Shown here piece after piece: positions 19,246 through 32,222 of a DNA stretch of 64,000 bases. The stretch lies in NCBI GenBank assembly GCA_963749915.1, contig CAVVOP010000022.1, positions 480,001-544,000 on the forward strand, in the 5' to 3' direction. The notes below the pieces were generated by a model. It was not told where the DNA came from. It made no database searches and worked only from the letters and a program-made list of their open reading frames with translations. The position numbers and the translations under genes were made by a program. This stretch comes from an uncultured cyanobacterium (GTDB lineage: Bacteria > Cyanobacteriota > Cyanobacteriia > Cyanobacteriales > Cyanobacteriaceae). Every line of letters begins with the position of its first letter. Positions within the stretch are counted from its first letter, which is position 1.

Positions 19246-20150
19246 GGCTCTTCTACAGTGAGTATGACAAATTAAGTACAAAAACAAAGTCACAAAATGG
19301 TAAAATTTTACACAAGTGAAGCGATCAGTTCTGATAAATAGATGCTACCTCGCTTTTAAACTATTAGGAAAATTAATCAAATTTTTAAATAAAACAATAA
19401 TTTTTATCTTATGCCTTCTAATTCCTCTCTTCATCTTATCACTAAACTTATTAATTTTGAGGGAGTCAAAGCTACTGATTACCATTTTATTACTGACAAC
19501 GAAATTTTAATTACATTATCGAATCAAACATCAGAGTCAACTTGCCCTTATTGTCATACTATTACTAATAAAATACACCAAGATCATTATTATCGAATTA
19601 GAGATATACCTTTGAGTGGTTATGATGTGTTTTTAAATATTAACCGCCGTCAATTTCGATGTATTCATTGCCAGAAAATTTTTAGTGAAGAGTTAAATTT
19701 TGTCAAAAAAAGAAGGACTTATACAACTAGATTGGCAGAGAAAGTAGTTAAGGAAGTGCTAGAAAGTGATATTTTAAACACTGCCAAAAGAAATGGAATG
19801 ACTCCCAGAGAAATAGAAACCTTATCAAAAGAAAAATCAGAAGATTTATTAGAAGAAAAACCAAAGGATTTAAAAAGATTAGGAATTGATGAAATAACTC
19901 AGTTAAAAGGAGGAAAGAATTACGCCGCAGTGTTAGTGGATTTAGACAAAAAAAAACCGATAGCAATTTTAGAGAACAGAAGTAAAGAGACAATCGGAAA
20001 ATACTTGATAAGTCTGGGTTGTGAGGTGTTAAATCAAATTGAAGAAGTCAGCATAGATTTGTGGATAGGATATAAAACTTTGGCATTGGAGTTAATGCCA
20101 AATGCCAATATAGTGGCAGATAGATTCCATGTAATGAAACAAATAAATGA
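19246..20150 (+). mobile_element. ISL3-family element, 3'-truncated copy 1
   Basis: Left end GGCTCTTCTACAGTGAGTATGA; near-identical to 22423-23325; no right end. Confidence 0.9.
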
Positions 20151-20154
20151 GTAG
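19411..20154 (+). pseudogene. ISL3 transposase, truncated
   Basis: CPYC...RDIP...RRQFRCIHC Zn finger, LGIDE, VSIDLW, VADRFHV; stops prematurely. Confidence 0.9.
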
Positions 20155-20589
20155 TCAAAGTATAGACGATTTTAGATATCGCTAATACAATCCTAGATGA
20201 AATGGTTGAATGTGTTAAAATTTTTCTGAATTTATCTATCTTAAATCAATTCTGATAATAACTGGAAGCTAGGTATAATAAGTGTTCTCCCCTTTTTTCT
20301 AATTATTCAAACCAATGAACACACAAAATGAACTAAAAATTGACTGTTTCTTTCCTCAATTTTCTCTTGCTTTTAGATTAATTATTGCAAGCTTCATCGG
20401 CATTTGGCACTAGCTTTACTTTTATTCAAAATGGTTTTCCTAACTGGAACAATATTGGTTTTTTTTCAGGTAATGTAATAATATTGATGGTTTTTCAACT
20501 TTTGACACCAAAGATAACAATTCTGAAGATGAATTAACGGCTTGTGATCTTTTGAATTATATATTCAGCGAGACAATTCATGACCTTAA

Positions 20590-21505
20590 TTTCTTAATCA
20601 GTTAGTTTTTCCCATAATTCTAATAATTTATTATTCATCTTTTTTTGAATGGTGTTATTAATTTAATATTTTTCAGCCATAATTGTTGAAATAAATCTTG
20701 AGAAATGTAGCCCTTATCTCCAAATAATCGACCCCATAAATCCTTCGTTAAATAAGGTACTGTTTTTCTATCGTCCACATTACCTTTTGTTATTTGAAAT
20801 GCCAATATTTCTCCCAATTCATTAATAATTAAATGTAATTTAAAGCCGAAGTACCAGTCTATAGAGCTTTTTCCCCAATGAGCCAAGTTATCAAAAACTT
20901 TATTTCTTTTGGCTCTTTTATTGTGGCAAATAGGAATACCCATTGTATCGATAAAAGAAATTCCTGTACATGATCCTTTACGAGTATTGAGATAAAAAAT
21001 TAAAGGAATTAAAGCGGAAGATTTAAGTTGAACAAAACGATTATAACTGACCAAATTAGGAAAATCTTGAAAATGATAAACCTGAATATGATTTTGATAA
21101 TAGTGTTTAAAGTTTCGATAACTAGAATGATGAAAATAAATAATAATAGTCATAATTTCACTCAAGGATAATCGACTATTTTTGATTCTTTTTTTCTGTT
21201 TAGATGATAAAATTTGACGATTAAAAGATGGTTCAAAAATTAAACAGAAATCATCTACATCATAGAAAAGTGTTTCTAATTCCATAAAAATTAATTTTTA
21301 AAAAATAACATATTGATTATGAAATTAATTTAAAAAAAAAAGGAGATATTAGCAATGAAATTTAATAAATATTCAGAAAAATTAACTTATTAATCTGGGT
21401 AGAACTTTTAATACATTAAGAATTGTAAAATAGCGAAAAATAGTATAAACCCAAAACTCATATAAGTTAAGAGTTTGAGACTATTTTCTTATATCGAACT
21501 CAGGT
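20590..21505 (-). mobile_element. IS982-family element, truncated/frameshifted
   Basis: Terminal ACCTGAGTTCGATA on the minus strand at 21505; transposase ORF 20635-21285 with FIDT, WYFGFKLHL, GDKGYIS; shift at an A-run into MNNKLLELWEK then stop. Confidence 0.85.
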
Positions 21506-21749
21506 ATATTAGGAACAGCAACGGCATTATGCTTCGGGACTATGTTGAAACGTAAAAATACTTTGAATAAAGAAGCTAAATAATATCGATACAAGTACAA
21601 AAATGATAAATAAACTTGAATGACGGCTACTACAGTCGTCTTTTTTTATGTCTCAAAACCGATCGCATTTGAGACTAATATGAATGCAATTAGGTATTGC
21701 TTATGGGGTTAATTGCTTTTAAAGTGAATTATTATTCATTAATATTGGA

Positions 21750-22175
21750 TTAATATTTATCTAGAAACATAAGTTTAAAGTCAGTTGCATTAACAATATC
21801 AATACCCTCAAAAGAATTTAAAACTAGCAAGTCTAAATCACCAGTAATAATAAAATTAACTGGAATAGATAAAGCAGCTTCTAAAACTATTTTATCCTTT
21901 AAATCTCTTAATTCAGAAATCTCTAATATTGATTTTGGTTGGCATAATTTAGTAATTAACTTGACACCATTAACTAACTCTTGAGTTGAATAATTTAGTT
22001 GTTTTAATCTCTTTTGTAACTTTTCTTTAGCTAAGGTTTCTTCTAGCTCTTTTAATAAAGAATTAGAAATATAAATAGTTGCTGAATTATTCTCTGCTAA
22101 CTGAATTATCTGACGAGGAATACCACCCCATAATAGACCTGAAATCCAGATATTCGTATCAAGTAATAGTTTCAC
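21750..22175 (-). CDS. PIN-domain toxin (VapC-like, putative TA toxin)
   Basis: LLDTNIWISGLL, LRDLKD...LEAA, ITGDLDLL. Confidence 0.9.
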   Translation of the reverse strand: MKLLLDTNIWISGLLWGGIPRQIIQLAENNSATIYISNSLLKELEETLAKEKLQKRLKQLNYSTQELVNGVKLITKLCQPKSILEISELRDLKDKIVLEAALSIPVNFIITGDLDLLVLNSFEGIDIVNATDFKLMFLDKY

Positions 22176-22390
22176 TACCCAGCTCTATCTTCCCGAACTT
22201 CTTTCACCAAAGAGACAATTTCTTCTGTGGACAATTGCTCCTTATCTTCTCCTAAATCATCTATTTTTTGCCATAACTGAGTCAAAGTATTTTCTCTTTT
22301 GGTAAACTGCTTAATTAACTGATATACTTCTTCTAATTTTTCTTCGGGAATATTATCAATTTCAGCTTTAATTAAATCTGCTATTGTCAT
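22175..22390 (-). CDS. Putative antitoxin
   Basis: 71 aa, translationally coupled upstream of the PIN gene; C-terminal LSTEEIVSLVKEVR. Confidence 0.7.
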   Translation of the reverse strand: MTIADLIKAEIDNIPEEKLEEVYQLIKQFTKRENTLTQLWQKIDDLGEDKEQLSTEEIVSLVKEVREDRAG

Positions 22391-22422
22391 TATATATTTC
22401 CTTTTGCTGATCTAATAATAAT

Positions 22423-23761
22423 GGCTCTTCTACAGTGAGTATGACAAATTAAGTACAAAAACAAAGTCACAAAATGGTAAAATTTTACACAAGTGAAGCG
22501 ATCAGTTCTGATAAATAGATGCTACCTCGCTTTTAAACTATTAGGAAAATTAATCAAATTTTTAAATAAAACAATAATTTTTATCTTATGCCTTCTAATT
22601 CCTCTCTTCATCTTATCACTAAACTTATTAATTTTGAGGGAGTCAAAGCTACTGATTACCATTTTATTACTGACAACGAAATTTTAATTATATTATCGAA
22701 TCAAACATCAGAGTCAACTTGCCCTTATTGTCATACTATTACTAAAAAAATACACCAAGATCATTATTATCGAATTAGAGATATACCTTTGAGTGGTTAT
22801 GATGTGTTTTTAAATATTAACCGCCGTCAATTTCGATGTATTCATTGCCAGAAAATTTTTAGTGAAGAGTTAAATTTTGTCAAAAAAAGAAGGACTTATA
22901 CAACTAGATTGGCAGAGAAAGTAGTTAAGGAAGTGCTAGAAGGTGATATTTTAAACACTGCCAAAAGAAATGGAATAACTCCCAGAGAAATAGAAACCTT
23001 ATTAAAAGAAAAATCAGAGGATTTATTAGAAGAAAAACCAAAGGATTTAAAAAGATTAGGAATTGATGAAATAACTCAGTTAAAAGGAGGAAAGAATTAC
23101 GCCGCAGTGTTAGTGGATTTAGACAAAAAAAACCGATAGCAATTTTAGAAAACAGAAGTAAAGAGACAATCAGAAAATACCTGATAAGTTTAGGTTCTGA
23201 GGTATTAAATCAAATTGAAGAAGTCAGTATAGATTTGTGGATAGGATATAAAACTTTGGCATTGGAGTTAATGCCAAATGCAAACGTAGTAGCAGATAGA
23301 TTTCATGTAATGAAACAAATAAATGAAGAATTAGATCTGATGCGAAAAAAGCAAAAAAGGGCAGCTTCAGAAATCAAAAATGAAGTAGAAAAAGAGAAAT
23401 TAGAAGAAGTCAAAAAAGTAGCACCAGAGTTAATAATAATGTACGCAGAAAAAGAGGCATGGAGGGATATATTTGAAAGTGAAATAACAGCGGAAGAAGC
23501 ATTAGATAAAATAGCGGAATGGATGAAATCAGCACAGAAATATTTTCCCAAAAGTTGTCAAACAATAAGAAGATGGCTAGATGAAATATTAGGCTATTTT
23601 GACAACAGAACAAGTCAAGGTATAGTAGAAGGAATTAATCAAAAAATTAAGCTGATTAAGAGAAGAGCTTATGGCATGACAAATTTTGATAATTTTAGGC
23701 GAAGAATCTTATTAAATTGGTCTGTATCTTAAAAATGTATCATAGCTACTGTAGAAGAACC
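22423..23761 (+). mobile_element. ISL3-family element copy 2, both TIRs present, transposase frameshifted
   Basis: Left TIR GGCTCTTCTACAGTGAGTATGA; right TIR (reverse complement) GGTTCTTCTACAGTAGCTATGA; A8 instead of copy 1's A9 at about 23125-23132 splits the ORF into 22588-23139 and 23235-23732 (EGINQKIKLIKRRAYG). Confidence 0.93.
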
Positions 23762-23891: not shown

Positions 23892-25703
23892 TTACTTATA
23901 ATATTCAGCTTGGGTAGCAAATAGGTGGGCATAAGTACCCTGAAGTTTCATAAGTTCCTCATGAGTTCCACTCTCACTAATTGTGCCATTTTCCAGAACA
24001 AAAATACGATCTGTTAGCTTTACCGTAGAAAGACGGTGACTGATAATCAAAGTAGTTCGATTTTTGGCTAAATGACGAAATTTAGTTAGTACTTCCGCTT
24101 CTGCTTGGGGATCTAATGCACTGGTGGGTTCATCAAGAATAAGGATAGGACTTTTACGCAGATAAGCCCTAGCGATGGCAATTTTTTGCCATTCTCCGAT
24201 ACTTAATTCTTCTCCTCTTTCAAATTCGTGACCAAGAATAGTATCGTAACCATGAGGAAAACTGGCGATCATTTCTTCAACACCTGCGAAAGAGGCCGCT
24301 TGGCAAATATCCTGGGATTTATGTAGTAATCTCACATCCCCGAAGCCAATATTCTCTGTCACCGTAAGATTATAATGAGCATAATCTTGAAAAACAGCAC
24401 TAATTTGTTCCCGTAAAATTGAAGTATCGAATTGTCGTAGATCGATGCCGTCTATGGTAATATTACCATCGGTCGGGTCATAAAGACGGCATAACAGCTT
24501 AACGAGGGAACTTTTCCCCGCTCCATTTTTTCCCACAAGGGCAACGGTTTCCCCTGGCTTAATGGTAAAGTTAAGATCTTCCAACACGGGGCGAGAACTT
24601 TGAGCATAACAAAATTGAACGTTATGGAATTGAATTCCCACTTTCAACGGCTCAACAAAAGCACAAGGATGGCTAGGTTCTTCTACTGTCGGTTTTAAGT
24701 CGAGGAACTCATAGAAACTCGAAAGGAATAGACTGTTTTCATAAAGACTGGCTAAACTAGACAATGCTTCCCTCAATAAACTTTGACCCCTTTGAAATGC
24801 CTGATAATACATAACTAGGCTACCAATACTAATCTTCCCTTGAACCGTTTGGTGAGCAATAAAGCCAATAGAACCGAATACAGCCAGATTTCCACTCCAC
24901 TGGGTGATCACTTCTGCGAAAGAACGTTGAGTTGCCAGAGTTATTTTTTCTTTGCGAATAGAAGTGCGTAGTTGATTATATTGTTTGCGAAAACGAGAGC
25001 CTAAATTAAACAGGCGAATTTCTTTGGCATGAGTTTCGTGGGTAAGTAGCCAGTTAAAGTAATCTGCTAATCTTTGGTTTGGTGTCCATTCTCGCCAACG
25101 ACGGTAAAGTTTATCAGCATATTTAATTCGTATGATTAAACTAGGTACAACTGCAAGAAATAAGATAGTAACGATTCCCCAATGCAAAGATAAAAGTAAC
25201 AAGGAGATCGCCACTAGAGAAATTCCGCTTTGTCCTAGTTGGATCAACTGATTTAAAATTATTCTTGGACGATAAGGAGCTTCAGATTGGGCTCGATGTA
25301 AAGCGTCATAGAAAGAGTTATTTTCATAATACCCTAAGTCAACTTCGGTGGATTTAGCGTGGAGTAAATTTTGTACATCATCCGTTACAATTTCCGAGTG
25401 AGCCTCATTGACCACTGCCGACAAGGAACGAGACAAGTCAATAATCAGGGCAATAACAGCCGCAAAAACAATTAGCCCAATTATTTGCTTCATGTCACTG
25501 GTTTTAGTCTCTAAGCTCATAGTGACAGTGTCTATGATTTGTTTTGTTAGATACAGCGAGATAAGGGGAAGGAAACCTTGAACAAAGAGCAAACCAAAAG
25601 AAGCAATAGTTAGAGCGGAAGAGCTGTGCCAGGCAATTTCTACTGCTCGCCATAAAAAGAGTAAACGTTTGATTCTTTGCTTATTACGATAGTTGAAGGA
25701 CAA
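23892..25703 (-). CDS. ABC transporter, fused permease/ATPase (lasso cluster D/exporter)
   Basis: TM N-half; Walker A GKNGAGKS, LSIGEWQKIAIAR, LDEPTSALD, ISHRLST; divergent from the lasso operon. Confidence 0.9.
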   Translation of the reverse strand: MSFNYRNKQRIKRLLFLWRAVEIAWHSSSALTIASFGLLFVQGFLPLISLYLTKQIIDTVTMSLETKTSDMKQIIGLIVFAAVIALIIDLSRSLSAVVNEAHSEIVTDDVQNLLHAKSTEVDLGYYENNSFYDALHRAQSEAPYRPRIILNQLIQLGQSGISLVAISLLLLSLHWGIVTILFLAVVPSLIIRIKYADKLYRRWREWTPNQRLADYFNWLLTHETHAKEIRLFNLGSRFRKQYNQLRTSIRKEKITLATQRSFAEVITQWSGNLAVFGSIGFIAHQTVQGKISIGSLVMYYQAFQRGQSLLREALSSLASLYENSLFLSSFYEFLDLKPTVEEPSHPCAFVEPLKVGIQFHNVQFCYAQSSRPVLEDLNFTIKPGETVALVGKNGAGKSSLVKLLCRLYDPTDGNITIDGIDLRQFDTSILREQISAVFQDYAHYNLTVTENIGFGDVRLLHKSQDICQAASFAGVEEMIASFPHGYDTILGHEFERGEELSIGEWQKIAIARAYLRKSPILILDEPTSALDPQAEAEVLTKFRHLAKNRTTLIISHRLSTVKLTDRIFVLENGTISESGTHEELMKLQGTYAHLFATQAEYYK

Positions 25704-25770: not shown

Positions 25771-26970
25771 ATGATGATGATGACTATAACTTCTAATCAC
25801 CCGCAAAAGTCAGAAATAGAGTTTTTATTGTGTTGTACCCAACCGGAGCTGACCACAACTCAAAAAGATCATTTGCTCCATCTTGGAAAACAAGAACTTG
25901 ACTGGTCATACTTAATTTCCTTTGCCTCTGAACATGGGCTTATGCCCTTACTTTATCGTCAACTTAAAGTCACATGCCCTGATATTGTCCCCGAAAAGAT
26001 ACTGATTCAGTTACGCCAATATTCTCTGGCTAAAACAGCAAGAAACATGGCTATGACAGCAGAATTGATCAGGATACTCAATCTTTGTAAAGATCAACAA
26101 ATCCCCATGCTCTCTTTTAAAGGACCTCTTCTTGCTCAACTTGCCTATGGAGATCTTAGTTTTCGGGAATTTGGGGATTTGGACTTACTAATTACTGAAT
26201 CTGAGTTACCTAAAGTTCATAAATTACTTTTAGCTCAGGGCTATCAACCCCTGTACAATATCAAAGATTCACAGATCGAAGTTTATGGAAAATTGCAACA
26301 CGAATTAGCCTACTCCCATGAAGCTAAAGGTATAATTATCGACTTACACTGGTCTATTGTGCACAAATATTTTTCTTTTTCTCCCTCATCTAAGTTTATT
26401 TGGTCAAAACTTGATCAGATCAACTTAAATAATCACAAAGTCGAAACTTTATCACTGGAAATCTTAATTGTTTTTTTATGTGCTCACTCAGCTAAACATG
26501 GTTGGTCAGATCTTTCCTTAATTTGTGAACTAGCCCATTTATTAAAACGCCATCCGCAAATTGATTGGGAAATAATCGAATCTTATATGGGAAATCTAGG
26601 AGGTCGAACTATGGTATTGCTGAGTCTGAGTTTAACTCAAACAATTTATGGAACAAATTTGCCCAAAAATATTTGTCAACAAATAATAAAATCTGAACCC
26701 ATTTTGACTAAACTTTCTGCCCAAGTTGAAGAACAAATCTTTTCCCCCAGAAATAAGCTATTAGATATTTTTTCCCCGAATTTTTTGTATTCTCAAAGTA
26801 TGGAATCTTGGCAAGACCGTTTTCTGTATTGGCTCAATGTTTCTACAACTCCTACTTCTATTGAGATGGAGGCAATTTCCTTACCAACAATTTTATTTCC
26901 CCTTTATTATCCGATCAGGATATTTAGACTAAGCTACAAGCACTTAAAAAAGTTTTTCATCAAAAATTAA
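25771..26970 (+). CDS. Nucleotidyltransferase family protein (NTP_transf_5-like), lasso-cluster tailoring enzyme
   Basis: FKGPLLA...YGD...REFGDLDLL, IDLHW, H.AKHGW motifs. Confidence 0.85.
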   Translation: MMMMTITSNHPQKSEIEFLLCCTQPELTTTQKDHLLHLGKQELDWSYLISFASEHGLMPLLYRQLKVTCPDIVPEKILIQLRQYSLAKTARNMAMTAELIRILNLCKDQQIPMLSFKGPLLAQLAYGDLSFREFGDLDLLITESELPKVHKLLLAQGYQPLYNIKDSQIEVYGKLQHELAYSHEAKGIIIDLHWSIVHKYFSFSPSSKFIWSKLDQINLNNHKVETLSLEILIVFLCAHSAKHGWSDLSLICELAHLLKRHPQIDWEIIESYMGNLGGRTMVLLSLSLTQTIYGTNLPKNICQQIIKSEPILTKLSAQVEEQIFSPRNKLLDIFSPNFLYSQSMESWQDRFLYWLNVSTTPTSIEMEAISLPTILFPLYYPIRIFRLSYKHLKKFFIKN

Positions 26971-27032: not shown

Positions 27033-27305
27033 ATGAAGGTAATGGTACCTGAGTCCGTTTTGGTGCAAAATTTAGATAATGAGTCAGTATTGCTGAATAT
27101 TGATACAGAGCAGTATTTTGGCTTGGATGATGTAGGCTCTCAGATGTGGGATCTTCTCAAAACCAGTGAATCAGTAGAAAATGCTACAGAAAAACTGCTA
27201 GAAATATACGATGCAGAAAAAGAACAATTGTACAAAGATTTACTGGAATTCATCGAAAAATTATCAGAACATGGTTTATTACAAATTATTAAAACGCGAG
27301 ATTAA
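27033..27305 (+). CDS. Lasso peptide B1 protein (PqqD-like RiPP recognition element)
   Basis: ESVLLNIDTEQYFGLDDVGSQMWDLL...LLEIYD...DLLEFIEKLSEHGLL. Confidence 0.93.
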   Translation: MKVMVPESVLVQNLDNESVLLNIDTEQYFGLDDVGSQMWDLLKTSESVENATEKLLEIYDAEKEQLYKDLLEFIEKLSEHGLLQIIKTRD

Positions 27306-27729
27306 TTCATTATTACAGTTATCTTCTCATGGGCGAAAATTACTGTTACAAGCTCTGATTTTATTCCCGTTAGTTCATCTTTCTCTAACATTAAAGGGAT
27401 TAAAACAAACTCAATCCTTGCTTGCTAATTTTGTTTCTAAAGCCCAAATTACTCCCCAAAAAAACACTGAGGTGGTTTGCTTTACGGAAAAAATAGTGGC
27501 CATCGCATCTCGCTACAGTCGTCCTTGGGGAAGCTGTTTGAGACGATCTCTTGTCTTATGGTTTTTGTTGCGCCGTGAAGGAGTTGAGAGTCAGTTACGC
27601 ATTGGGGTAAAACGAGAAAAAGACCAATTTTCCGCTCATGCTTGGGTAGAGTGGGACGGAGTTGTTTTAAATGACCAGTCCAACGTGGGAGATGAATTTG
27701 CTATGTTTGAAAATTTACGAGTTCTTTAA
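27271..27729 (+). CDS. Lasso peptide B2 leader protease (transglutaminase-like)
   Basis: SCLRRSLVL (Cys), LRIGV, FSAHAWVE (His); likely ATG at 27271 within track ORF 27211-27729. Confidence 0.93.
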   Translation: MVYYKLLKREINSLLQLSSHGRKLLLQALILFPLVHLSLTLKGLKQTQSLLANFVSKAQITPQKNTEVVCFTEKIVAIASRYSRPWGSCLRRSLVLWFLLRREGVESQLRIGVKREKDQFSAHAWVEWDGVVLNDQSNVGDEFAMFENLRVL

Positions 27730-27741
27730 TGACGATATCCT

Positions 27742-28719
27742 ATGGCTATATATAAATATAAATATGTTGATGTAATTTTTATAAGCAATATTTTTTTACC
27801 GAGCCTTTCTGTCATTAACGGGGATACTTTTGACTATATTTTCCAACTGGGATGCTCATCTTCTCGTAATAGAATATTTGGTGGTGACTGGATACACCAT
27901 TGGACTTTTGCCAATGAGGAAGTATGGCTTTCCTTAGGGAAAGAAGAAAATGAATACTATCTTAAATTTCCTGATATAGCTGACTTCTACTTCTCCCCCG
28001 AAAACAAGACCATTGATTGCTATGAGCAACCCGATATTTCCATCGAAACCATTAGGCACTTATTACTCAATGTAGTTATGCCTCTTGTTCTCACTTACAG
28101 AGGGAAATATTTTCTTCATGTAGGTGCCATAGATCTAAAAGAGATTGGAGTCGCTTTTCTGGGGAAATCAGGTTTTGGCAAATCAACTTTAACCACTAGC
28201 TTTGGGCAAAAAGGGTTTCCCATAATTACAGACGATTGTGTAGTTGTGGAGCAAGATCAAGATAAATTTACCCTTATGCCTGCACCCCCACAGTTGCGAT
28301 TATGGGATGAGTCCATCGATTTCTTATTTGCACAAAAAAAACCCCATTTATCTCGAGGAGTTAACTATACAAACAAAGCACACTTATATGAAGCGGATGC
28401 TATGGGGATTGTGTTTTCCAGTGAAATTGTTCCACTCGGGTGTATATACGTTCTCTGTTCCCCTGAATCGGTGGAAGAATTGGATACCACCATTGACATT
28501 AAGCGATTATCCTCAAGAGAAGCGATGTTTCACTTACTTGAGTCCGTATTTCGCTTCGACATTAGTGACAAATCAAGAGTGGCACAAGAGTTTGATTTCC
28601 TTAGTAAAATTGCACGCTCTGTACCTTGTTTCCATCTTCGTTATCCCAGAAATTTTAATCTTTTGTCCGAGGTACAATCAGCAGTCGTCGAGAACACTCT
28701 AAGGGAGATAAAAGTATGA
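27742..28719 (+). CDS. HPr-kinase-like P-loop kinase (lasso peptide kinase family)
   Basis: LHVGAI...FLGKSGFGKSTL...ITDD...PQLRLW. Confidence 0.85.
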   Translation: MAIYKYKYVDVIFISNIFLPSLSVINGDTFDYIFQLGCSSSRNRIFGGDWIHHWTFANEEVWLSLGKEENEYYLKFPDIADFYFSPENKTIDCYEQPDISIETIRHLLLNVVMPLVLTYRGKYFLHVGAIDLKEIGVAFLGKSGFGKSTLTTSFGQKGFPIITDDCVVVEQDQDKFTLMPAPPQLRLWDESIDFLFAQKKPHLSRGVNYTNKAHLYEADAMGIVFSSEIVPLGCIYVLCSPESVEELDTTIDIKRLSSREAMFHLLESVFRFDISDKSRVAQEFDFLSKIARSVPCFHLRYPRNFNLLSEVQSAVVENTLREIKV

Positions 28720-30635
28720 GTGGAATTGCAGGAGTTGTCCATTGGCATAGAGAACCAGTTAAATCCCATGAACTAGAACAAATGATAGTAAAACTACATC
28801 ATCGTGGACCCCATGGAAGAGGTATTTGGCTTGAGGGTTTTTGCGGTTTAGGTAATACACTGCTGTGGAATACTCCCGAATCCTTACAGGAAAAACTACC
28901 ATCGACCTCTGCTGAGGGAAATTTAGTCATTACCGCCGATGTTCGCCTAGATAACCGAGAGGAACTAATTGAGGCTCTAGGAATCACTAACAGCCATTCC
29001 TGGGAGGTTACTGACAGCGATCTAATTCTCGGTGCTTATCAAAAGTGGGGGCAAACTTGTCCGCAAAAATTACTCGGTGACTTTGCTTTTGCCATTTGGG
29101 ACTCCCGACAAGAGCAACTATTTTGTGCTAGGGATCATTTTGGCTGTAAACCTTTAATCTATTATCACTCAAATGGTATTTTCGCCTTTGCCTCAGAAGT
29201 TAAGGCTTTATTTTGTCTGGGAGACGTTCCTCGGCGTATTAATGAAGGGAGAATAGCCGATTTTTTGGTAATGACCCTAGAACGTATCGATAAAACTTCT
29301 ACTTTTTATGAAAATATTTTTAAATTGCCTCCTGCCCATACTTTGACCATCAATAGAGAGAAATGTTCTTTGGAGTGTTATTGGAATCTTGATAGCAGTA
29401 AGGAAATTCACTACTCATCAGATCAAGATTATGAAGACGCTTTTCTCGAAATCTTTACCGAGGCTGTAAGCTGTCGCCTCCGTAGTCATTCCTTAGTGGG
29501 TTCTATGCTCAGTGGGGGCATGGACTCCTCTTCGATTGTCTGTATTGCCCGTGAGCTTCTTTTGCAAAAAGGAGAATTACTCCATACCTTTTCTGGGGTT
29601 TCTGATGATAGACAAACCTGTTGTGAAAGTCCATTTATTGAGGCAATTCTTGGTTTGGGGGGGTTGAATGCGGAAGTAATTGGAGCAGATGAAGTGAAGT
29701 CTTTTTTACCAGATGTTCATAATTTATTCACACACACCGATGACTTATTTGACTTTCTCCTACATGGCATCACCTTAGTAACTTACAGTGCCGCCCACCG
29801 AAAAGGACTTCATGTGATGATGACTGGTTTAGACGGTGATTTAGTGGTTTCACAAAGGGAAATAATTTTGAGGAAGTTTTTACGCACAGGAAAGTTCAGT
29901 CGTGCTTATGAAGAAGCCCAAGCAATGACGAAGTTAAAAGGTTTATGGGGAGATAACTCCCCGACAAAATTACTCTGGAATGGTGGTTTAAAACCCCTCC
30001 TACCCCAGATTATCAAACAAAGTTGGCGGCTACTAAGCTCTAAAAAGAAAAACCAAGCAGATATTCAAAGCAGTCTTATTTCCGAGGAGTTTGCCCGACG
30101 GGTAAATTTAGAAGAACGCTTAGAAACTCTTTCCATAAATCTGGGAAAATATAAAGTGTTAAAAACAGCTAGAGAAGTTCATCAAAACTCCTTGGATGTT
30201 CCTAATCTCACCGTCGCCCTTGATAGATACGAAAGAGTTGCCGCATTCTATTCCATTGAACCGCGTCATCCCCTTCTCGATAAAAGATTGGTCGAGTTCT
30301 GTCTATCCCTTCCTGGTGAGCAAAAAGTTCGCCAAGGATGGACAAAATCCATTCTCAGAAGGGCAATGGTCGGGAAAGTGCCGGATTCCGTACGCTGGCG
30401 ACACGATTGTGATAATGTACAGCCTGCTTTTACAAAAAGTATGTTACGTCATCAACAAGAATATCTCCCAGATTGTATTGCTGAATGTGCTACTGAGTTA
30501 AAGGATTATGTTAATGTAAAAGAGCTTGAAAAACAGTACTTTCAGTGTTACGCCACAGAAACTGTTAACGAAGACGCAGGATGGAAAGTTTGGCCTACCG
30601 TCATCTTGGCTACGTGGCTTCGTGACCACAGGTAA
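28716..30635 (+). CDS. Lasso peptide cyclase (C protein, asparagine-synthetase-like)
   Basis: MSGIAG start (Ser in place of the catalytic Cys), RLDNREEL, ARDHFG.KPL, LSGGMDSS, EPRHPLLDKRLVEFC, KSILRRAM. Confidence 0.93.
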   Translation: MSGIAGVVHWHREPVKSHELEQMIVKLHHRGPHGRGIWLEGFCGLGNTLLWNTPESLQEKLPSTSAEGNLVITADVRLDNREELIEALGITNSHSWEVTDSDLILGAYQKWGQTCPQKLLGDFAFAIWDSRQEQLFCARDHFGCKPLIYYHSNGIFAFASEVKALFCLGDVPRRINEGRIADFLVMTLERIDKTSTFYENIFKLPPAHTLTINREKCSLECYWNLDSSKEIHYSSDQDYEDAFLEIFTEAVSCRLRSHSLVGSMLSGGMDSSSIVCIARELLLQKGELLHTFSGVSDDRQTCCESPFIEAILGLGGLNAEVIGADEVKSFLPDVHNLFTHTDDLFDFLLHGITLVTYSAAHRKGLHVMMTGLDGDLVVSQREIILRKFLRTGKFSRAYEEAQAMTKLKGLWGDNSPTKLLWNGGLKPLLPQIIKQSWRLLSSKKKNQADIQSSLISEEFARRVNLEERLETLSINLGKYKVLKTAREVHQNSLDVPNLTVALDRYERVAAFYSIEPRHPLLDKRLVEFCLSLPGEQKVRQGWTKSILRRAMVGKVPDSVRWRHDCDNVQPAFTKSMLRHQQEYLPDCIAECATELKDYVNVKELEKQYFQCYATETVNEDAGWKVWPTVILATWLRDHR

Positions 30636-30652: not shown

Positions 30653-30681
30653 TTGACATATACATAATTAAATAATATGAT
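30653..30681 (+). promoter_or_regulatory. Near-consensus sigma70 promoter for the lasso precursor gene
   Basis: TTGACA (30653-58), 17 bp, TATGAT (30676-81), 36 bp upstream of the precursor ATG. Confidence 0.7.
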
Positions 30682-30717: not shown

Positions 30718-30849
30718 ATGAAAAACCAAAATCTCAAAAAATATCACCCTCCTAAACTGGAAATTTATGGTAATGTTTCTAAACTGACTCAGGGTGGTAG
30801 TTCAGGTACCCCGGAAACAGCCATGAATCCCATAGGGGCACGACCATAA
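30718..30849 (+). CDS. Lasso peptide precursor (A), 43 aa, not in ORF track
   Basis: Translated by hand: MKNQNLKKYHPPKLEIYGNVSKLTQ-GGSSGTPETAMNPIGARP*; YxxPxL leader motif, G..V..LT, Thr at -2, Gly1, Glu8. Confidence 0.93.
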   Translation: MKNQNLKKYHPPKLEIYGNVSKLTQGGSSGTPETAMNPIGARP

Positions 30850-31067
30850 ATTTAGCTCAAATGCAATCATAGTCTTTAATCTGGTCAAAACTGTTAGGGC
30901 GTTTTTATCTTCGAAAGGAAATACTACTGTTGATGAACATAGACTTTCTCGGCCTGTTTCTGAACTGGTAAGTTTTTGTTGATAAATCACATTACCCTAA
31001 CGACCAGATCTTAATAATAAATATTATTTTGTCTAAGTTTGTTCATAATTCTCAATCTATCAAAATT

Positions 31068-32222
31068 ATGTATAGTATTTTTGAATATGGAGGAATGATC
31101 AAAGATTCCGTACGGATGTCTGCTTACATTGAGACATTGCGTAGGACAGTAACACCAGAATCTATCGTTTTAGAGATTGGTACAGGCACAGGCATTTTTG
31201 CTCTTATTGCTTGTCAGTTAGGAGCGAGGAAGGTTTATGCCATTGAACCTAATAATGCGGCCATTCGGGTTGCTCAAGATATTGCCCGCGTCAATGGTTA
31301 TGGGGATAAAATTGAGTTCATTCAGAATCTATCAACTGAAATAAACCTGCCTGAAAAAGTTAGCATAATACTCTCTGATCTAAGAGGTACTCTGCCACTA
31401 TTTCAAAATCATATTCCCGTTATTGTTGATGCCAGAAAAAGATTTTTAAGTCCGAATGGTGTACTTATTCCCCAACAAGATACTCTGTGGGCATGTGTGG
31501 TAGAGGCACCAGAATTTTATCGAGATAAATATAGTTCTCCTTGGGATGATAAACCCTATGGTTTCGAGATGAAATCAGCACGGCGATTCACTACCAATAC
31601 TTGGCATAGGTATAAAGTAAAACCGGAAGAACTTTTTGTCGAATCTCAGTGCTGGTCAACTCTGGACTATAACACCAGAGAAGATCCCGATGTCAAAGGG
31701 GAACTAAATTGGACCGTAGCACGCACTGGAGTAGCCCATGGTTTAAGCGTTTGGTTTGATGCCACCTTAGCTGAAGGGATTGGTTTTTCCAATGCCCCCG
31801 ATCAAATCGGAAGCGTTCATGGTGAAGCTTTTTTCCCTTTTTCCTTTCCCGTAAATCTTTCCGAGGGGGATACTGTTTCTGTGACTTTACGAGCTGACTT
31901 AGTGGGGAATGATTATATCTGGCGTTGGCATACCCAGATATTTGCTCAAGACAATCCTGCTCAAGTTAAAACCAACTTTAAACAATCTACCTTTTTTGGT
32001 CAACCTCTATCCCTAAAACAATTACGCAAACTGGCGGAGGGTTACGAACCGAAACTCAATTCAGAGGGGAAAATAGTACAATTGACTTTGCAACTAATGA
32101 GTGAAAATAAAACTTTAGGAGATATTGCCAAGCAACTTACCCATGAATTACCACAACGCTTTTCTTCTCCACAAGAAGCTCTTACTTATGTGGGAAAAAT
32201 TTCTCAGAAATATAGTAAATAA
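31068..32222 (+). CDS. PRMT-fold class I SAM-dependent methyltransferase with RRE-like C-terminal extension
   Basis: MIKDSVRMSAY, VLEIGTGTG, GARKVYAIE, LPEKVSIILSD, RFLSPNGVLIP, HGLSVWFDA; probable ATG 31068 (track start 31029). Confidence 0.82.
   Translation: MYSIFEYGGMIKDSVRMSAYIETLRRTVTPESIVLEIGTGTGIFALIACQLGARKVYAIEPNNAAIRVAQDIARVNGYGDKIEFIQNLSTEINLPEKVSIILSDLRGTLPLFQNHIPVIVDARKRFLSPNGVLIPQQDTLWACVVEAPEFYRDKYSSPWDDKPYGFEMKSARRFTTNTWHRYKVKPEELFVESQCWSTLDYNTREDPDVKGELNWTVARTGVAHGLSVWFDATLAEGIGFSNAPDQIGSVHGEAFFPFSFPVNLSEGDTVSVTLRADLVGNDYIWRWHTQIFAQDNPAQVKTNFKQSTFFGQPLSLKQLRKLAEGYEPKLNSEGKIVQLTLQLMSENKTLGDIAKQLTHELPQRFSSPQEALTYVGKISQKYSK

Follow-up and report, generated by a model that had tools for sequence, protein, structure and literature searches.

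A PRMT-fold methyltransferase with a reduced arginine clamp closes a cyanobacterial lasso peptide cluster: a candidate enzyme for basic residues near the precursor C-terminus

The window, a stretch of 64,000 nucleotides from an uncultured cyanobacterium, holds an intact lasso peptide cluster whose final gene encodes a real, intact-looking and uncharacterised methyltransferase (Table 1). The lasso hallmarks are all present: a cyclase, a B2 peptidase, an RRE and a precursor with a YxxPxL leader, Thr(-2) and Asp/Glu at 7-9. The core contains Ser3, Met11 and a C-terminal Pro18 and no Lys, and Arg17 is, as the first-pass annotation had it, its sole Arg. The methyltransferase gene, present in single copy in the source genome, opens with an ATG; an in-frame TTG at 31029 would add 13 residues that are absent from relatives. 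Matches to the promoter pattern upstream of the precursor and methyltransferase number 5, against 2.3 expected in shuffles. Directly upstream of the cluster (window 19411-23732) lie two broken ISL3 transposases, a DDE transposase and a PIN-domain gene. Six same-genus genomes match the cluster over short stretches at most, while a same-family genome carries an orthologous cluster at 70-74% DNA identity (L311, G1116:C86:1551-6424) in which a truncated cyclase abuts a truncated ABC gene, the precursor and methyltransferase being absent in the 15 kb examined. At another Glu8-type cluster (L236:5360-7796) the family gene is split by an insertion-sequence-like element.

Table 1. Features of the lasso cluster and of its methyltransferase, in window coordinates
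Feature	Position	Strand	Basis or remark
ABC exporter, divergent to the cluster	23892..25703	-	domain matches
Nucleotidyltransferase-family protein	25771..26970	+	PF14907, 207.8 bits
Stand-alone complete RRE (B1)	27033..27305	+	PF05402, 66 bits
Lasso leader peptidase B2 (ORF extent; later true start probable)	27211..27729	+	NF033537, 84.9 bits (cut-off 33)
HPr-kinase-like peptide kinase	27742..28719	+	His, Walker A and Asp-Asp motif present; below curated cut-offs
Lasso cyclase (C protein)	28716..30635	+	NF033535, 688.6 bits (cut-off 525)
Sigma-70-like promoter consensus match, 11/12	30653..30681	+	pattern match only
Lasso precursor, 43 aa	30718..30849	+	NF033521, 25 bits (cut-off 19)
Precursor leader	30718-30792	+	
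Precursor core, 18 residues	30793-30846	+	predicted Gly1-Glu8 ring
Core Ser3	30799-30801	+	
Core Met11	30823-30825	+	
Core Arg17	30841-30843	+	
PRMT-fold SAM-dependent methyltransferase, 384 aa	31068..32222	+	sequence and structure matches
PRMT core, residues 1-309: Rossmann domain, dimerisation-arm region, beta-barrel	31068..31994	+	structural alignment; Pfam PRMT_C above cut-off
Asp104, replaces first Glu of the double-E loop	31377..31379	+	Asp in 359/365 relatives
Val250-His251, replaces His-Trp of the THW loop	31815..31820	+	family: Ile/Val-Tyr
PqqD-derived tail, residues 326-384: short extended segment and three helices, no beta-sheet	32043..32219	+	models, profile matches

The fold of the methyltransferase is firmly that of a PRMT, as had been proposed from the sequence motifs, all of which we find in the translation. 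A PDB sequence search lists 60 matches, every one a PRMT (best E 2.8e-25), and PRMTs alone appear among the Foldseek matches listed for the AlphaFold2 model (mean pLDDT 89.7, pTM 0.75; best E 6.3e-27). Structural alignment of residues 1-310 to 15 PRMT representatives gives Z 25.1-34.3, whereas non-PRMT chains, among 48,161 compared with the model, reach at most 13.1, the score of the top non-PRMT methyltransferase; the model shows both the Rossmann domain and the beta-barrel with its dimerisation arm. Eukaryotic PRMT1/2/3/6/8, CARM1, PRMT7 and PRMT5 share this two-domain fold (Z up to 34.3, r.m.s.d. 2.1-2.6 over ~300 residues) at 20-25% identity, with the Met, Asp and Arg of the N-terminal helix at the SAM site common to both. 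The enzyme differs from them in its added tail, its bacterial RiPP context and its chain start, which we place where the YFxxY motif of type I enzymes ends. Longer fused forms of the family yielded one match, and no kinase fusion was seen.

In canonical PRMTs the double-E glutamates and the THW-loop residues are guanidinium ligands, the residue preceding the Trp varying by type between His, Gln and Ser (PMC8226133, PMC8470942). Profile alignment to rat PRMT1 and others places E144 at D104, M146 at R106, position 153 at Q113 and M155 at H115 and, in the THW loop, H293 at V250 and W294 at H251, so that the earlier reading of the double-E loop as D...Q is borne out. Absent are both the pair of Glu nine residues apart and a polar residue ahead of the THW Trp. 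Among 365 non-redundant relatives (<80% identity; 438 aligned, 436 of sufficient length), in addition to the Asp at 104 (Table 1), position 113 is variable, with Glu in 46; both glutamates are kept in 2; position 250 is His in none; and position 251 is mostly Tyr (341), with His in 5. The enzyme is therefore not a canonical PRMT, and its altered motifs are a family-wide trait: Asp104 replaces the first Glu, the second Glu is lost, and Ile/Val stands where the THW loop has His. The replacement of THW by SVHG thus stands as annotated, but its His falls at the Trp position, a private change where relatives mostly have Tyr, and not at that of the catalytic His. Position 106 covaries with 138 more strongly than with any other column, Arg106 being accompanied by Asp138 in 308 of 310 cases and His106 by Glu138 in 18 of 31, with a Fisher p of 3e-19 that kinship inflates. 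This pattern suggests that Arg106-Asp138 forms an internal salt bridge rather than offering a free anion-binding Arg, and therefore weakens the idea of an anion pocket built on Arg106.

At E <= 0.001 the methyltransferase matched 2100 proteins, distant ones included, and the record titles of family members name Cyanobacteriota, Acidobacteriota, Chloroflexota, Gemmatimonadota, Pseudomonadota and others. A GTDB scan with the single protein query gave no matches; members in GTDB were found by an alignment-based scan. The best 80 GTDB loci, which as best matches of the scans include near-duplicates and are not a random sample, carry a lasso gene in 68 cases; of the 56 loci flanked by 5 kb or more upstream and 3 kb or more downstream, 51 have lasso genes and 49 a cyclase, the association with RiPP genes that the first-pass annotation had expected of homologues. 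By HMMs, a kinase is found at 90 of the 91 loci having both methyltransferase and cyclase, the exception being a 4.4-kb contig, and at 109 of 142 loci it lies within 300 bp of the methyltransferase. We conclude that the enzyme is very probably a lasso-associated, tailoring-type enzyme.

The family also ranges beyond lasso clusters. A non-lasso RiPP cluster (L297:5482-8372; also L298 and L299) combines a tail-less member with a PqqD, a radical SAM/SPASM gene and a precursor-like ORF of 63 residues. In Spirulina orphans (L052, L066, L075) a DUF3172 gene whose product has an Arg-rich N-terminus lies upstream of the enzyme and lasso genes are absent, and a more distant PRMT-like domain occurs in cyanobacterial ORFs of 840-2240 residues (L216-L223).

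We compared the precursor cores that accompany the enzyme. A first set numbered 97 precursor-bearing loci after removal of one spurious match; at 64 of them every core is free of Arg, and at 73 a Lys-Thr/Ser pair falls within the final seven residues. The full set comprises 115 loci with the methyltransferase, six of them holding only a divergent type, and 27 without it. With the enzyme, 112 of 131 distinct cores have Lys or Arg at positions -5 to -2, where shuffling of the tails gives 70.1 (0 of 2000 shuffles reached 112); in the control clusters without a methyltransferase the count is 11 of 35 cores against 8.9 by shuffling. The last six residues at the 104 main-family loci contain Lys only in 68, Lys and Arg in 14, Arg only in 13, the window included, and neither in 9; Arg17 corresponds to position -2. 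No pocket residue convincingly tracks Arg-type as opposed to Lys-type tails. The Lys/Arg-Thr motif also occurs in related-kinase clusters with no methyltransferase in the stretch examined (L232, L249 and, on a short contig, L231), and it tracks the kinase tree; it may therefore be the kinase's motif or a mere plug. On a cyclase tree of 114 rows, drawn without four short control contigs and one locus with two cyclases, no trait reached significance over five phylogenetically independent pairs, the basic residue going in the expected direction in 1.2 on average. As a separate observation, about 40 of the 131 cores (precursors of L001-L159) have Asp at position 10 as their sole plausible ring acceptor, outside the reported range of 7-9 (PMC8498205), which points to rings of 10 residues or to cleavage at a shifted site.

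The reading we prefer, at a probability of roughly 40%, is that the enzyme is a single-Asp side-chain N-methyltransferase for a basic residue near the precursor C-terminus, Lys in most relatives and Arg17 here. Arg17, the target named in the first-pass annotation, is still the strongest individual candidate here, though not on the ground of PRMT identity, since most partner loci of the first set are Arg-free and what is conserved is a basic residue, usually Lys. In the lasso-cluster family the two-glutamate arginine clamp is reduced to one aspartate. Substrate and site, timing and targeting we infer as follows. SAM would be held by the retained Gly-rich motif, Asp13, Arg16 and Glu60; and Asp104 would position the acceptor nitrogen among the conserved aromatics Tyr7, Trp179 and position 251. 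By analogy with the characterised lasso kinases and StspM, methylation would act on the linear precursor before threading, probably in concert with the kinase. The cluster's own B1 may deliver the precursor, as it does for BsfK (PMC10368454), the tail perhaps serving as an optional docking module rather than an autonomous leader receptor. The purpose, speculatively, would be a bulkier plug below the ring that keeps its cationic charge.

Somewhat unlikely in our estimate, if well provided with acceptors, is O-methylation of an anion: a phosphate that the kinase would add to ring Ser3 (or, in cores of the Lys-Thr type, to the Thr of the tail) or the carboxylate of the C-terminal Pro18. Both acceptors were among those named in the first-pass annotation; for the third, a backbone N, no finding points either way. 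Ser or Thr is present in the cores of all 115 loci and a C-terminus is universal; the kinase is the methyltransferase's near-constant neighbour; and two acidic or polar guanidinium ligands are gone from the pocket. There are precedents for both anions, BsfK phosphorylating core Ser3 (PMC10368454) and StspM and LasF forming C-terminal methyl esters (PMC9266682, PMC8498205). A point against the preferred reading is that 7 of the 115 loci have cores free of both Lys and Arg. Five of these, with pockets that look intact, belong to the window's own kinase clade, whose nine loci all have Ser at core 2-4 and a Met; this keeps phosphate or carboxyl O-methylation, and S-methylation of Met, alive. However, Arg106 appears to be paired with Asp138, and the same pocket is found kinase-free in a poly-Arg clade and at orphan loci. 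Kinases are common in any case, occurring in 17 of 17 cyanobacterial control stretches (L192-L208); the nucleotidyltransferase, whose role in the pseudomycoidin pathway is described as phosphate modification, co-occurs in 49 of the best 80 loci; and both the C-terminal residue and the distance from Lys to the end vary.

The poly-Arg clade, nine Chloroflexota loci (support 100), has no lasso or kinase genes in the DNA examined. Its enzyme lies directly behind a gene of 135-150 residues with 16-20 Arg in the first 30-45 and a SHOCT domain (L134 covers just the end of this gene); other neighbours vary. These enzymes retain the family pocket residues and are more acidic (net charge -13.1 versus -7.7 +/- 3.7). 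That a clade with the family pocket adjoins an Arg-rich protein gene suggests that the single-Asp pocket can accept a basic, Arg-rich substrate, and makes the two-gene module a candidate bacterial protein-arginine methylation pair. Among 301 Anaerolineae genomes, the Arg-rich gene occurs in 18, in 15 of them without a methyltransferase, and the enzyme in 12; the two are adjacent in only 2, and the pair is therefore a clade trait, not an obligatory one. Such modules, in which the protein has a poly-Arg/Met N-terminus and a SHOCT domain and RiPP genes are absent from the neighbourhood, lie at L048:9428-10954, L060:8928-10426, L063:998-2667, L064, L068, L124, L134, L140, L155 and L263.

Divergent sisters of the enzyme within lasso clusters have both Glu, nine residues apart. 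They stand alone in L240-L242, with Arg-rich cores, adjoin a family member in L011, L012 and L020, with cores containing Arg and Lys-Thr, and lie beside Arg-containing cores at all six loci with a known core, in two clades. Because these double-Glu sisters adjoin Arg-containing cores, Arg methylation seems to retain the canonical clamp, which suggests a division of labour in which Arg falls to the double-Glu type. Double-Glu PRMT-like enzymes with a Ser-Trp or His-Trp motif were recorded at L240:11678-12946, L241, L242, L011:11212-12423, L012, L020 and L094, those of the L011 type having an extra N-terminal domain with no Pfam match. A wider reading, that the single-Asp pocket methylates any unbranched side chain near a peptide end (Lys, Arg or the Met sulfur) in a bacterial PRMT branch spread over several phyla, with lasso peptides, radical-SAM peptides and the protamine-like poly-arginine protein of Chloroflexota as clients and a sister branch keeping the clamp for arginine, we regard as rather doubtful.

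The tail raises the question of targeting. Residues 310-384 folded alone (pLDDT 93.2) give a short helix and three long helices with zero strands, and the full-length model likewise has no strand in this region. The tail has the three-helix bundle of PqqD and of two lasso B1 proteins (3g2b, 6jx3, 5v1u; 54-67 aligned residues) at Z 5.0-5.6, scores tied with unrelated transposase and terminase HTH domains; to that extent the annotated resemblance to the helical part of an RRE is upheld. The leader-pairing three-stranded beta-sheet is absent. Matches to Pfam PqqD at E <= 1 are found for 53 of 124 family tails, and 12 of the 124 match the winged helix of PKMT lysine methyltransferases. A complete PqqD gene and a radical SAM gene come after a tail-less relative at three loci in Anaerolineae. 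Against these PqqDs the tail profile scores a probability of 84.6% (E 6.8e-6) over 37 columns, the last strand and two helices, although such a PqqD may instead serve the radical SAM enzyme. Foldseek with the tail gave nothing at E <= 0.001; in the ESM Atlas the top score was 0.90, to unnamed clusters. Judged by profiles and models, the tail is the helical half of a PqqD that has lost its first two strands, and the suggested comparison with PqqD therefore succeeds for the helices and fails for the sheet.

Could this half-PqqD be a working RRE that binds the leader itself? The profile matches to Pfam PqqD and to the stand-alone PqqDs behind tail-less relatives would favour it, as would a Tyr/His-x-Pro-x-Leu segment at the position of strand beta-3, with which an RRE leader pairs (PMC12710340). 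Yet beta-1 and beta-2 are missing, the match to the clusters' own B1 profile has a probability of only 4%, the tail is absent (a stop, then the next gene) from lasso loci L053, L100, L104 and L115, and it is retained in family members without a RiPP leader. Because the tail lacks a beta-sheet and is absent from several lasso-cluster relatives, and because the cluster's B1 is complete, autonomous leader binding is unlikely, and leader guidance through the tail, as first proposed, is unsupported. That the segment mimics the leader motif was also considered and rejected (hhalign probability 0.4%). In two members the tail is swapped for a PhyH-type dioxygenase domain, by Pfam in P0188 and by similarity in P0254, which is cut short.

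We think it improbable that the enzyme lacks a proper core substrate at this locus, whether as a Lys-specific passenger beside a Lys-free core or because leader lysines or a pathway protein are methylated. By identity and tree its closest relatives are cyanobacterial enzymes with Lys-Thr/Ser cores, whereas the window's cyclase and kinase group with the Glu8 clade. At 7 of 90 conserved columns, Y251H included, the enzyme has a different residue; the relative in L236 is a split gene, and the orthologous cluster of G1116 has a truncated cyclase. Against this, seven departures lie within the family's range (median 5), the ORF is intact, and the gene is present at six of six loci of the cyclase clade. 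A FastTree hint that a methyltransferase module had been swapped into a Glu8-type cluster found no support from IQ-TREE and the AU test (28 of 180 rows); the AU test does not reject a grouping of all five intact Glu8-type enzymes in a single clade (p 0.34), and so the swap is not established.

Least of all do we expect the pocket to take Met11 as an unbranched side chain and S-methylate it to a sulfonium, a cationic stand-in for Lys or Arg: Met accounts for 6.8% of residues in cores accompanied by the enzyme, compared with 0.5% in the rest, is found at 74 of 115 loci against 4 of 27, in all seven Lys/Arg-free cores and throughout the window's kinase clade (9/9), and numbers 3-7 in the basic region of linked poly-Arg proteins against 0-4 in unlinked ones, and SETD3 methylates Met weakly (PMC9004244), but 41 of the 115 loci have no core Met, Met is not enriched at -5 to -2 (33 versus 35.4), the independent-pair test gives 3.3 of 5 pairs without reaching significance (median p 0.25), and the hypothesis was formed post hoc from the same data, with no PRMT-fold precedent found.

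The lasso methyltransferases described in the reviews consulted are C-terminal carboxyl O-methyltransferases and PIMT homologues (PMC9266682, PMC8498205). StspM and the lassomycin-type LasF are likewise SAM methyltransferases of lasso clusters that act on the linear precursor, but are described as carboxyl O-methyltransferases modelled on mitomycin 7-O-methyltransferase, with a His/Glu centre and not a PRMT fold (PMC9266682, PMC8498205); a mitomycin O-methyltransferase-like fold is not among the structural matches listed for our model. The enzymes of cellulonodin-2 and lihuanodin, also from lasso clusters, are PIMT homologues that require a conserved Asp6, whereas the window core has no ring Asp6 and the methyltransferase matches PIMT weakly, at the Rossmann level (NF001453, 18 bits, cut-off 188). 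The pade, thco, psm and bsf clusters share with the window's an HPr-kinase-like gene, a nucleotidyltransferase and a split B1/B2, and BsfA has the same ring Ser3; the available descriptions of these clusters name no PRMT-fold gene, and their cores end in Ser where the window's ends in Pro. The idea that the Asn-amide N-methyltransferases AerE/PoyE are PRMT-fold was rejected, AerE being described as GenN/PrmC-like (PMC9060474); it is not among the 50 structural matches listed, and PRMTs match the model far better. A fosfazinomycin preprint (PMC13622209) proved, in its accessible part, of no relevance to the methyltransferase.

The accessible text of a review of RiPP methyltransferases does not contain the term PRMT, and its side-chain section covers Asn-amide enzymes and one fungal Lys enzyme (PMC11285071). 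Across the reviews and searches, which left subscription journals and supplements outside their scope, we found no characterised family member, no lasso-peptide Lys or Arg side-chain methylation, no PRMT-fold RiPP enzyme and nothing related that pairs a lasso peptide with an arginine methyltransferase. The value of the present locus lies in its discriminating substrate, which with one Arg, one Met and no Lys makes a clean test case. A characterised member would supply a small single-chain peptide methyltransferase for engineering and would reveal the function of a PRMT scaffold stripped of the residues that define it. Because bacterial relatives with and without the canonical clamp coexist, it would also bear on the origin of eukaryotic PRMTs.
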